Of a stretch of 64,000 nt of DNA, positions 23,377-28,385 are shown piece by piece (within the stretch, counting starts at the first letter, position 1; each line of letters starts with the position of its first letter). The DNA comes from Alphaproteobacteria bacterium (GTDB lineage Bacteria > Pseudomonadota > Alphaproteobacteria > CAISOG01), in NCBI GenBank assembly GCA_044345375.1, contig JBIJBF010000005.1:19932-83931 (forward strand). Direction: 5' to 3'. The notes beneath the pieces are model-generated. The model was not told the DNA's origin. It saw nothing but the letters and a program-made list of their open reading frames with translations, and searched no databases. Both the position numbers and the translations under genes were made by a program.

Positions 23377-23949
23377 TTGTGCGCTTTTTTTGATGAAAAC
23401 CCCTGTGCAACTGGGCGCTTAACTTCCGTTGTTTGGCGGCGTTTGTGGGGTTTGGCAGGTTTTTTTCTGCTGGCGTTGTTGGGGCTTGGTGCTGAAAAGC
23501 TGTTGGCTGCTCCCGTGCGCGCCAGCACCACGGTTTCAGCCTCCTCCCTGTTGGTGATTCAGCTGACCGCGCTGGAGGAGTTGCAGTTTGGCCGCTTGAT
23601 TAAGCCATCATCTGGCACAACCAGTTTCAAAATCAACAATCCCAATGGTTCCATCACGGTTTCTGGTGGCAACGGCATGAATTTGGATAACGGTGTTTCG
23701 GGCAGTATAAAGGTTCAGGGAACACCCGCCGAAACTTTTACCTTGCAAATCAGCGATGCGGTTTGTGATGACCCCAACATGACCTTTAAGGAGCAGGTTT
23801 TCTGGTTGAATGGCACCCCAGGAACCTCTTTTGTGTTTGCGGAACCAGGTGGTGAGAATGTCTTGCGTTATGGCGGCAATTTAACCGTTGGTGCGGCCAC
23901 CAAGCCTGGTTATCGTCAGTGCATGTTCTACACGGGCGCATCCTACTGA
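23377..23949 (+). CDS. Secreted DUF4402/spore-coat-U-like beta-sandwich protein, putative fibre subunit 1
   Basis: TTG start after an AAAGG Shine-Dalgarno. Signal peptide (FFLLALLGLGAEKLLAAPV), Gly/Thr-rich beta-strand segments (ITVSGGNGMNLDNGVSGSIKVQGTPAETFTLQI) and a C-terminal ...Y. First gene of the chaperone-usher-like cluster. Confidence 0.5.
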   Translation: MCAFFDENPCATGRLTSVVWRRLWGLAGFFLLALLGLGAEKLLAAPVRASTTVSASSLLVIQLTALEELQFGRLIKPSSGTTSFKINNPNGSITVSGGNGMNLDNGVSGSIKVQGTPAETFTLQISDAVCDDPNMTFKEQVFWLNGTPGTSFVFAEPGGENVLRYGGNLTVGAATKPGYRQCMFYTGASY

Positions 23950-23990
23950 TGGTCATTGATAGATTTTTAAATCATAGATGGAGAGTAACA

Positions 23991-24926
23991 ATGGACTTTG
24001 AACAATCGAAAATATTCGCGCGGGGGCGTCGGCTGCTGGTTGGCGGATTTTTGCTGGGGGTCTTTTGGGCAATCTCCACGCCAACGGGTATACAGGTTGC
24101 AAGCGCGCAGGATGCGGCAGCCGCTGACAAGGTTGAGGAGCCGGTTGAGGCGGGTGGTTTGGGCAGCGTGGGGATTACCAAGACCCGTGTGGTGTTTGAG
24201 GGGCGCAAGCGCAGCGATTCGGTGGTGCTGATCAACCGTGGTACGCGCAAAACCACCTATCGCATCTTTTTTCAAAATTTGCGCATGTCGGTCGATGGAC
24301 AATACACCGAGATTAAGGAGCCCGCTGCGGGGGAGAATTTTGCCCAGGGCTTGGTAAGTTTTTCACCACGCCAGGTCACCTTGGAACCATCGGCGACCCA
24401 AACCATCCGCCTAACCGTAAGAACGCCTGAGGGTACGGTGCCGGGTGAATACCGTTCTCACTTATACTTCCAGGCTTTGCCGTCGGATGATGTTGGCACC
24501 AACATTGAGTCGGTTGGTGGCAAGGAGGATCGTTTGCAGGTGCAAATGGTGCCAATTTATGGCCTGTCCATTCCCATTATTGTGCGGGTTGGTGAGCTGC
24601 AGGCCACGGCTTCCCTGAAAAATGTGTCGGTGGTCACCAATCCTGAGGGTGGGCAGGCGATTAAATTTGATGCACTGCGTGAGGGGTCTAAGTCGGTCTA
24701 TGGCGATGTGACCGCGCTTTATACCCCAGTTGGCGGTTCTGAACGGCCGGTTGGGGAGATTCGTGGGGTGGCGGTGCTGACCCCGAATGATCGCCGCACC
24801 TTGCAATTGCCGCTGCAACTGACCGATAAAAAACCTTTGGCGGGCGGCAGTTTGCATATCCAATACCGCACCCAAGAGGATGATGGGCGTCAGTTGATCG
24901 CTGAGTCGACCGTAAAACTGCCATGA
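23991..24926 (+). CDS. Periplasmic pilus-assembly chaperone (PapD-like, two Ig-fold domains)
   Basis: Signal peptide, then GITKTRVVFEGRKRSDSVVLINRGTRKTTYRIFF..., a chaperone-usher chaperone N-domain pattern. The stop overlaps the usher start (ATGA). Confidence 0.6.
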   Translation: MDFEQSKIFARGRRLLVGGFLLGVFWAISTPTGIQVASAQDAAAADKVEEPVEAGGLGSVGITKTRVVFEGRKRSDSVVLINRGTRKTTYRIFFQNLRMSVDGQYTEIKEPAAGENFAQGLVSFSPRQVTLEPSATQTIRLTVRTPEGTVPGEYRSHLYFQALPSDDVGTNIESVGGKEDRLQVQMVPIYGLSIPIIVRVGELQATASLKNVSVVTNPEGGQAIKFDALREGSKSVYGDVTALYTPVGGSERPVGEIRGVAVLTPNDRRTLQLPLQLTDKKPLAGGSLHIQYRTQEDDGRQLIAESTVKLP

Positions 24927-27787: not shown

Positions 27788-27800
27788 GCTTGCTGGCCGT

Positions 27801-28385
27801 TTATGGCTTGGGAGTGGCCAAGCTGTTTTCGTAGTCCACTTGGATTTCCAATTCAGCCCGCAAATCCCTGTTCCCCGTGCTTTGTGGAAAATTCAGGGTG
27901 CCGCCAACCTTGATGCGTGCCTTGCCATCGGCGCCAAAACGCCCAGTGCCGGCAGGTTCGCTGACAATATTGGTTAGGGTCGGTGGGGTTCCCGATAGAT
28001 TTCTGGAACGCAGCGGCAATGTTGAGGGCAAAACAATGGTAAAATATTCCTCAGGCTGTCCCCGCACCTCAAACTCCGCCGCCTGCCACATCCCCGTGGT
28101 TTTGGTGACGGTGCCACTGGTGGCGATGGTGCCGCTGGTTGGGCTAATGGTCACCGTGCCACCGGTTTTGCCGCTAAGCATCGCCTGCCCGAAACTCAGC
28201 CCGTGCAGTTCGGTAATTTTAATGGGGGTGCGTTCACGCAGGGCTTTTGCCGCGGCTTCTGATGCCGATACGGTTGACATGTTGTTGAACGCAACGACGG
28301 TTGAAAAAGCCAAGAGCAGGATGGCCGCAAAGCCCTTATGACAGCTACGGGGATGACGGTTGCGGATACGGTCTTTGGTTGGCAT
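27801..28385 (-). CDS. Secreted DUF4402/spore-coat-U-like beta-sandwich protein, putative fibre subunit 2
   Basis: Signal peptide, LHGLSFGQAMLSGKTGGTVTISPTSGTIATSGTVTKTTGMWQAAEFEVRGQPEEYFTIVLP...GGTLNFPQSTGNRDLRAELEIQVDY. Convergent with the usher and directly downstream of the hybrid kinase on the same strand. Confidence 0.5.
   Translation of the reverse strand: MPTKDRIRNRHPRSCHKGFAAILLLAFSTVVAFNNMSTVSASEAAAKALRERTPIKITELHGLSFGQAMLSGKTGGTVTISPTSGTIATSGTVTKTTGMWQAAEFEVRGQPEEYFTIVLPSTLPLRSRNLSGTPPTLTNIVSEPAGTGRFGADGKARIKVGGTLNFPQSTGNRDLRAELEIQVDYENSLATPKP

Follow-up and report, generated by a model that had tools for sequence, protein, structure and literature searches.

A 64,000-nucleotide stretch of the genome of an Alphaproteobacteria bacterium (the window; contig JBIJBF010000005.1, positions 19,932 to 83,931 of the forward strand) carries, at 23377-28385, a four-gene locus that probably encodes a complete, highly divergent chaperone-usher pathway for subunits of the DUF4402 family (PF14352). 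The locus comprises a gene for a small DUF4402 protein (subunit 1; 23377-23949, plus strand, 190 amino acids (aa)), a gene for a PapD-like chaperone (23991-24926, plus strand, 311 aa), a gene for an outer-membrane protein with a predicted usher fold (24923-27787, plus strand, 954 aa) and a gene for a second DUF4402 protein (subunit 4; 27801-28385, minus strand, 194 aa). Plausible Sec signal peptides were read from the sequence of all four products. An initial annotation of this DNA had described a minimal fibre locus of the chaperone-usher kind whose subunits are uncharacterised DUF4402 proteins; the four open reading frames (ORFs) that it listed are real and have the coordinates it gave them, and its core reading holds. 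PF14352 carries no functional annotation, and the new element of this study is that DUF4402 is linked to an usher-fold protein and a chaperone.

The placement of both small proteins in DUF4402 was confirmed by Pfam scores above the gathering threshold of 25.2 bits for subunit 1 (E 2.5e-9, 38.3 bits) and for subunit 4 (E 3.4e-19, 70.2 bits), and the two are paralogues, as had been proposed, at a considerable distance (BLASTP E 2e-4, 26% identity over 109 residues). The family model was matched by all 72 collected relatives, and a phmmer search of 1.84 billion representative proteins with DUF4402 gave 834 clusters at 50% identity (E ≤ 1e-3), while a word-indexed homologue search with subunit 4 returned the query as its sole match. 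Within the 64-kb window, no DUF4402 ORFs were found beyond the 190-aa and 194-aa genes. The DUF4402 proteins are predicted to have a pilin-like immunoglobulin (Ig) fold, with CsuA/B among the best fold matches. Neither SCPU, Fimbrial nor other pilin families of Pfam matched either window subunit at E ≤ 1; Antig_Caf1, Saf-Nte_pilin and Adhesin_Dr were likewise absent from the subunits' Pfam matches at this cut-off and from the 25 families shown for the 72 relatives. No paper of the searchable literature, which does not cover subscription journals, mentions DUF4402 or PF14352.

By sequence, the 311-aa protein can be assigned as a PapD-like chaperone of the periplasm, with a signal peptide and two Ig-like domains. 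The protein itself falls slightly under the PapD_N cut-off of 23 bits (E 3e-4, 21.1 bits) and gives no match to PapD_C; the PapD-like assignment of the initial annotation is borne out by the family, in which 43 of 45 chaperone relatives match PapD_N (best E 8.6e-7), and by an hhalign comparison with a profile of five chaperones (FimC, SfmC, EcpB, EcpE and Caf1M) that covers both Ig domains over 197 columns (probability 83.5%, E 8.3e-6). Weak matches of the family profile in the PDB were to FimC, CfaA, YadV and CupB2, the comparison with Caf1M alone gave E 0.15, and many of the relatives are annotated at source as 'molecular chaperone' or 'P pilus assembly chaperone PapD'. The gene coordinates first assigned to the chaperone stand, and the length of 335 aa that accompanied them belongs to a longer ORF variant starting at GTG 23919; the ATG-initiated ORF encodes 311 aa and is preceded by a ribosome-binding site (RBS), GGAGAG at 23980-23985, six bases upstream.

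Residues that could anchor a subunit are conserved in the chaperone family, with Arg at both candidate positions (R66 and R140). In alignments, an invariant Arg in the A1-strand segment 'PTRVVF' pairs with the Arg of FimC 'ATRVIY', the segment 'SIPVIVRHG' pairs with 'IKLLVRP' and is preceded by a strand of alternating hydrophobic residues, and the Arg of 'QTVRL' pairs with the Arg of CfaA 'SIRL'; this last residue may be the counterpart of the anchor Arg found in strand F1 of non-classical chaperones. In classical chaperones, two basic residues of domain 1 hold the subunit carboxylate, whereas non-classical chaperones use an Arg of strand F1 plus domain 2 residues (PMC4654587). From these alignments, the window chaperone seems to join the classical A1 Arg with the F1 Arg of the non-classical type.

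The 954-aa protein is usher-like by predicted fold and probably by descent, and by sequence it lies outside the current usher families. An AlphaFold2 (AF2) model computed from 61 sequences (predicted local distance difference test (pLDDT) 88, predicted TM-score (pTM) 0.74) begins with a low-confidence Ala/Pro-rich linker (aa 32-68) ahead of a mixed domain that, from DSSP and pLDDT, may correspond to the periplasmic N-terminal domain of ushers (25154-25525, plus strand, aa ~78-201). Behind it come a helix (aa 206-220) and six long strands (barrel strands 1-6; 25664-25960, plus strand, aa 248-346), then an inserted six-strand beta-sandwich resembling a plug (25994-26197, plus strand, aa 358-425), and then eighteen further long strands (barrel strands 7-24; 26225-27148, plus strand, aa 435-742); the strands were counted from the DSSP listing of the model, and their assignment to a barrel was inferred from strand order and length. 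The chain closes with C-terminal domain (CTD) 1 (27167-27520, plus strand, aa ~749-866), whose motif SDQNGVVLMNNLTPYRYADISLDESTLEDPY…LPRPGKVLRAEFP resembles the usher CTD1 motif, and CTD2 (27530-27784, plus strand, aa ~870-954), whose prealbumin-like sandwich is of the SdrD_B / CarboxypepD_reg type (SdrD_B E 1.2e-6). In PapC and FimD, a 24-strand barrel that takes in a plug after strand 6 is flanked by one domain at the N-terminus and two at the C-terminus. The 24 barrel strands of the model, the plug after strand 6 and the N- and two C-terminal domains therefore amount to an usher topology.

Foldseek searches with the AF2 model agreed with this topology: the top 18 matches were all FimD or PapC (E 3e-29 to 6e-14, up to 930 aligned columns), and behind them came SdrD (1e-8, restricted to CTD2), LptD (3e-6) and TonB-dependent receptors (about 1e-5). 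The usher-like assignment made in the initial annotation is thus sustained by the model and its structural matches. At the sequence level, identity to FimD is 12%, and the hhalign comparisons with ushers were colinear and not significant: aa 794-852 pair with FimD 734-791 in CTD1 (E 0.021), where both proteins have the motif TD..G.a.l..l..YR...v.LD...L.D……P..G….F; 435 columns from the plug through CTD1 pair with Caf1A (E 0.052); and 234 columns pair with a four-usher profile (E 0.0023). The plug region, which is colinear with the Caf1A plug in the alignment and gives a weak Big_6 match (aa 357-421), holds the best-conserved motif of the usher-like family, GWEVELYRN…DGRYEF.DVPL..G.N..RLVFYGPQGQ, and the majority of its invariant residues. 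An NCBIfam scan of the 954-aa protein returned nothing, and single-sequence and profile searches of the PDB returned no usher, with only SdrD B-type domains matched at the C-terminus.

The scored candidate set contained 311 homologues of the 954-aa protein at 28-37% identity (35-37% for the best), annotated as 'hypothetical', 'carboxypeptidase regulatory-like' or 'SPOR domain-containing'. All 45 relatives scanned match SdrD_B and CarboxypepD_reg, and 18 of the 45 match Cu_amine_oxidN1 somewhere along the protein. SPOR, a peptidoglycan-binding domain, was seen in the usher-like relatives P0007, P0013, P0026, P0044, P0068, P0088 and P0096, whose lengths reach 1,000-1,400 aa, and Cu_amine_oxidN1 domains were seen in P0016, P0077 and P0078, among others. 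We know of no characterised usher with either of these domains.

Conservation of the whole cassette was assessed by scanning the species-representative genomes of GTDB with patterns from the usher alignment, by which usher-like relatives were found in at least 577 stretches. The matches listed include Alphaproteobacteria (Rhodospirillales, Kiloniella, Novosphingobium) and Gammaproteobacteria as well as Nitrospinota, Acidobacteriota, Desulfobacterota, Zixibacteria, Akkermansiaceae and Bdellovibrionales. Synteny was read from 47 non-redundant loci, each flanked at both ends by 4 kb or more, with hidden Markov models (HMMs) built from our own three alignments: a chaperone gene was present in 47 of 47 and DUF4402 genes in 46, with one to seven per locus and three being the commonest number; gene tables from independent callers agree with these calls. 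The survey of DUF4402 genes beside chaperone and usher genes that had been suggested at the outset thus gave a near-uniform result, and the window locus, with two subunit genes, is a minimal version of the cassette.

Individual loci depart from the common arrangement. A Nitrospinaceae metagenome-assembled genome (MAG) carries seven DUF4402 genes (L019, 2910-5648), of which five are tandem and near-identical and have the common N-terminus ADGTGTATA[NS]VV[VI]PLA…; these tandem paralogues could reflect subunit variation or gene amplification. In a Neptunomonas MAG (L030, 2747-5635), an usher-like gene stands without a chaperone or DUF4402 gene in the flanks covered, and in a Nitrospinales MAG (L028, 5512-9946) a chaperone and an usher gene occur with no DUF4402 gene within about 6.5 kb. 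A Bacteroidota-like locus (L088, 6972-12031; L089, 866-10419) combines three DUF4402 genes with a two-component system, an IS110 transposase and a chaperone that belongs to the window chaperone family (E 3.5e-87). The next large ORF downstream in that locus, of 886 aa, encodes a SUEL-lectin protein unrelated to the usher profile. Two-component systems flank DUF4402 genes in the Nitrospinaceae locus L002 as well as in L088, and a PilZ gene flanks them in L004.

The DUF4402 proteins of these loci have features at both ends of the chain that resemble those of pilins. Among 134 aligned, locus-derived paralogues, Tyr occupies the conserved C-terminal column in 125, and the chain ends within two residues past that column in 133 and exactly one residue after it in 114. 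A chain that ends close after a Tyr is what C-terminal anchoring by a chaperone predicts, and the penultimate Tyr and chain end of DUF4402 therefore fit anchoring of the C-terminal carboxylate and recall the penultimate Tyr of classical pilins. At the N-terminus, two types of paralogue were recognised heuristically. The first carries, directly before strand A, a 12-16-residue segment of alternating Ser/Thr/Ala with a Val/Ile end and often Pro, as in ADGTGTATANVVVP before LAIT and GTATATIVAP before IVLT; the second begins at strand A or has a polar or charged segment in the place of the extension. With a heuristic based on the cleavage site, 71 of 149 N-termini were rated strand-like and 35 none or polar, and both types were present in at least 25 of 65 loci under the strict heuristic (about 40 by eye). 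The N-terminus of Caf1 (ADLTASTTATATLVEP before ARITLT) is closely similar to the DUF4402 extension, and the Caf1 extension and C-terminus that were compared with DUF4402 read ADLTASTTATATLVEPARITLT … AGKYTDAVTVTVSNQ. This N-terminal segment of Caf1 is its donor strand.

The two window subunits differ in the same way. The signal peptide of subunit 1 (gene 23377-23949, plus strand) reads …LLALLGLGAEKLLA up to the cleavage point and APV… beyond it; the Ser/Thr/Ala/Leu-rich extension APVRASTTVSASSLLV, rated strand-like by the heuristic, leads into strand A (IQLTALEELQFG), with the boundary between APVRASTTVSASSLLV and IQLT. In subunit 4 (gene 27801-28385, minus strand), the signal peptide …NNMSTVSA is followed by the polar, charged segment SEAAAKALRERTP where a strand-like extension would be, and then by strand A (IKITELHGLSFG), with the boundary between SEAAAKALRERTP and IKIT. 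The subunit 1 extension may act as a donor strand, which would make subunit 1 the putative polymerising major subunit, and subunit 4 may be a single-domain cap or initiator subunit. The absence of a two-domain adhesin gene and of a FimA-family pilin, as the initial annotation had it, stands; a view of the locus as having no tip subunit needs qualifying, since subunit 4 may itself be a single-domain cap.

From these features, an assembly route can be proposed that would follow the chaperone-usher pathway throughout, and the system would work like that pathway and does not represent a new principle. Sec would carry both DUF4402 proteins into the periplasm, where the PapD-like chaperone would capture them by donor-strand complementation, anchoring the subunit C-terminus, and hand them to the 954-aa usher, a 24-strand barrel that would be plugged at rest and would present its N- and C-terminal domains in the periplasm. 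At the usher, the Ser/Thr/Ala-rich extension of subunit 1 would displace the chaperone strand of the subunit inserted before it, and rounds of such donor-strand exchange would extend a thin, linear fibre of the Caf1/Saf kind through the pore. Subunit 4, lacking a donor-strand extension, could take up a strand but offer none, and would accordingly be the first to enter and end up as the cap at the distal tip. The resulting fibre may serve in adhesion or in biofilm formation. Of this picture, the analysis shows the family assignments, the predicted fold of the usher, the homology of the chaperone and the conserved cassette, from which the strand exchange, the fibre and the subunit roles are inferred.

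Several observations weigh against this reading. None of the models PF00577 (Usher), PF13954 (PapC_N) and PF13953 (PapC_C) matches the 954-aa protein at E ≤ 1, and PF00577 is matched by 5 of its 45 relatives, with a best E of 0.013; the usher HMM check put forward in the initial annotation was therefore negative, and the usher assignment rests on the predicted structure. For DUF4402, profile searches establish no tie to any solved pilin: the family profile found no pilin among PDB sequences and nothing in a comparison with FimA, and its hhalign match to Caf1 (E 0.01) covers 33 C-terminal columns only. The C-termini of the window subunits are themselves atypical. It had been noted that both small proteins end in x-V-x-Y, which holds approximately: in subunit 4, QVDY is followed by a nine-residue tail, ENSLATPKP (27801-27827), and subunit 1 ends in GASY and does not align at the C-terminal column of the family. 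Subunit 4 is the sole case among the 134 aligned paralogues with more than two residues after the conserved Tyr, and a chaperone that anchors the C-terminal carboxylate might treat such a tailed subunit differently. The N-terminal classification is heuristic and leaves 43 of 149 N-termini ambiguous. A second classifier, independent of the cleavage site, together with clustering on the domain only, did not separate the two types; its result was discarded because signal-peptide c-regions mimic the composition of the extension, and the counts of N-terminal types should accordingly be read as rough. In the Bacteroidota-like locus, no usher of the 954-aa family lies near the DUF4402 and chaperone genes. 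Finally, the gene for subunit 4 follows a sensor kinase gene and runs counter to the rest of the locus, with which it may therefore not be co-expressed.

Other explanations of the locus were weighed against a divergent pathway of fibre assembly. The machinery could derive from a chaperone-usher system and yet handle cargo that does not polymerise, with donor-strand exchange playing no part and DUF4402 proteins being exported singly, to be displayed on the surface or released as monomers or to form a loose coat. This would suit the AF2 monomer model of a DUF4402 subunit, in which residues 51-188 fold confidently and the N-terminal segment goes unused, the many paralogues (subunit 4 included) that have no strand-like extension, and the want of a detectable sequence link between DUF4402 and solved pilins. 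It is nevertheless unlikely, given that paralogues with a Caf1-like alternating extension occur in most loci, that all but one of the 134 chains stop no more than two residues from the conserved Tyr, and that, to our knowledge, every characterised usher assembles polymers.

Very unlikely is the assignment implied in the initial annotation, in which the locus is an ordinary archaic (sigma, Csu/CupE-type) member and DUF4402 a divergent SCPU pilin. The archaic class is phylogenetically widespread (PMC4654587, PMC9452303), and one of the 72 DUF4402 relatives matches SCPU (PF05229) at E 0.07; against this, PF05229 matches neither window subunit at E ≤ 1, the 954-aa protein is missed by PF00577, which recognises known ushers, and no CsuE-like two-domain tip adhesin is present. 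Archaic pilin domains have invariant cysteines (PMC4654587), whereas none of the conserved columns in the alignment of 72 DUF4402 sequences is a Cys; archaic chaperones are reported to have no analogue of the classical anchor residues (PMC4654587), whereas the invariant A1 Arg of the window chaperone pairs with that of FimC. A third view would make the 954-aa protein a large outer-membrane barrel of a generic kind, for example a transporter of the TonB-dependent or LptD-like type, with functionally unrelated Ig-like neighbours; it is effectively refuted by the Foldseek separation (ushers down to 3e-29, TonB-dependent receptors and LptD at 1e-5 to 3e-6) and by the near-obligate linkage to chaperone and DUF4402 genes. 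Structural matches to such barrels span about 310 residues, compared with 512-530 for ushers; neither Plug (PF07715) nor TonB_dep_Rec (PF00593) has a Pfam match in the protein; and the sandwich is inserted after strand 6 and not at the N-terminus of a barrel that has 24 strands, as opposed to the 22 of TonB-dependent receptors. An autotransporter was also considered for the 954-aa protein and was ruled out by the DSSP topology and Foldseek.

With the divergent chaperone-usher pathway as the preferred reading, the locus appears to represent a very divergent and apparently undescribed branch of this machinery, no prior description of which was found in the searchable literature (subscription journals lie outside its coverage). 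A more specific proposal, held tentatively and with slightly less than even confidence, is that it belongs to a deep-branching seventh chaperone-usher clade with DUF4402 pilins, thin Caf1/Saf-like fibres capped by an extension-less paralogue, and an usher that is invisible to current HMMs and hence missing from classifications based on ushers. The accessory modules of the usher family, namely the universal prealbumin-type CTD2 and, in some members, SPOR and Cu-amine-oxidase-N-like domains, may reflect a mechanistically distinct, cell-wall-anchored assembly platform.

If this reading is right, functions would follow for DUF4402 and for an extensive family of outer-membrane proteins (900-1,400 aa) now labelled 'hypothetical', and the chaperone-usher pathway would reach far past the lineages studied so far. 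Thin pili would be expected in marine and soil lineages that are seldom credited with them (Nitrospinota, Acidobacteriota, Desulfobacterota, Zixibacteria and many Alphaproteobacteria), and, with the 954-aa family outside the usher models of Pfam, HMM-based pilus censuses would be expected to undercount in environmental bacteria. The family would also supply an evolutionary outgroup for asking which usher and chaperone features are ancestral, and the minimal four-gene version in the window would be a convenient construct for heterologous expression and cryo-electron microscopy.

The layout of the genes gives some indication of how they may be expressed. Subunit 1 was assigned a TTG start because its signal peptide has an Arg-Arg n-region with no other start codon ahead of it. 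The ATG of the usher gene overlaps the chaperone stop codon (ATGA), suggesting translational coupling. The subunit 4 gene, with an ATG start and an RBS, GGGGAG, at 28397-28392, is convergent with the usher gene, and their stop codons lie 13 nt apart. A 929-aa hybrid sensor histidine kinase with PAS, HisKA, HATPase and receiver domains is encoded at 28479-31268 (minus strand); its gene runs in the direction of the subunit 4 gene and stops 93 nt before it, and the two genes may be co-transcribed. A sigma-70-like promoter candidate (23260-23287, plus strand; TTGACA, 16-nt spacer, CATACT; 10 of 12 consensus matches) lies about 90 nt 5' of the first subunit gene, and is weak evidence because the scan found 2 sites where shuffled sequences predict 4.0. 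The locus recurs, 99% identical and with unchanged gene calls, on a Joint Genome Institute (JGI) metagenome contig.

The locus adjoins a tRNA-His gene (23043-23119, minus strand), as originally reported, and an Rfam scan found two tRNAs and nothing else. In the region ~17000-31500, between the tRNA-Arg gene (17620-17695) and the seryl-tRNA synthetase gene, G+C is 0.49-0.59, compared with 0.60-0.66 on either side; this region may be an acquired island, although an integrase and repeats were not sought. At 21094-22991 (minus strand), a MipZ/ParA-type ATPase (289 aa), which hints at an alphaproteobacterial origin, adjoins a 324-aa protein in which a poly-Pro tract occurs together with a J-domain-like motif (…HPDHGGD…) at the C-terminus.

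Compared with known systems, the window locus combines features of several classes. The classical pili (FimC/FimD, PapD/PapC) provide the best structural matches to the usher model and a common predicted architecture. Their chaperones, like that of the window, have two domains, the A1-strand Arg, an alternating G1 strand and a counterpart, 'IKLFYRP' in the alignment, of the 'I.V.VR' interdomain motif; the penultimate Tyr is common to classical pilins and the DUF4402 family, and the chaperone and usher genes are adjacent and overlapping in both. Unlike classical ushers, the window usher has a CTD2 of the SdrD_B / CarboxypepD_reg type, and some of its relatives, at 1,000-1,400 aa, carry SPOR or Cu_amine_oxidN1. 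The window subunits are DUF4402 and not Fimbrial (PF00419), and there is no two-domain lectin adhesin. Archaic (sigma) pili, such as Csu of Acinetobacter baumannii and CupE of Pseudomonas aeruginosa, are likewise widespread outside the enteric bacteria and likewise have small subunits, which in the window system would form thin fibres; they differ from the window locus in having SCPU (PF05229), Usher (PF00577), conserved pilin cysteines and a CsuE-like two-domain tip, and the window chaperone, in contrast to theirs, also retains the classical-type A1 Arg.

The FGL-type polyadhesins (Caf1 of Yersinia pestis, Saf, Afa/Dr and Agg) are similarly minimal, each combining one small major subunit with a chaperone and an usher. 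In gene order, the window locus matches safABCD, where the major subunit is followed by chaperone, usher and a small second subunit, and SafD, AfaD and AggB cap the distal end in fibres of this type. The mature N-terminus of Caf1, ADLTASTTATATLVEP, and its C-terminus, GKYTDAVTVTVSNQ, resemble the DUF4402 extension and the GxYxxxhxVxVxY ending, respectively. Differences are that the second subunit of the window is convergently transcribed and that the profile matches of the window proteins to the Caf1 system are faint (Caf1 E 0.01, Caf1M E 0.15, Caf1A E 0.052). Overall, in the simplicity of its architecture, the window system is most like the Caf1/Saf type.

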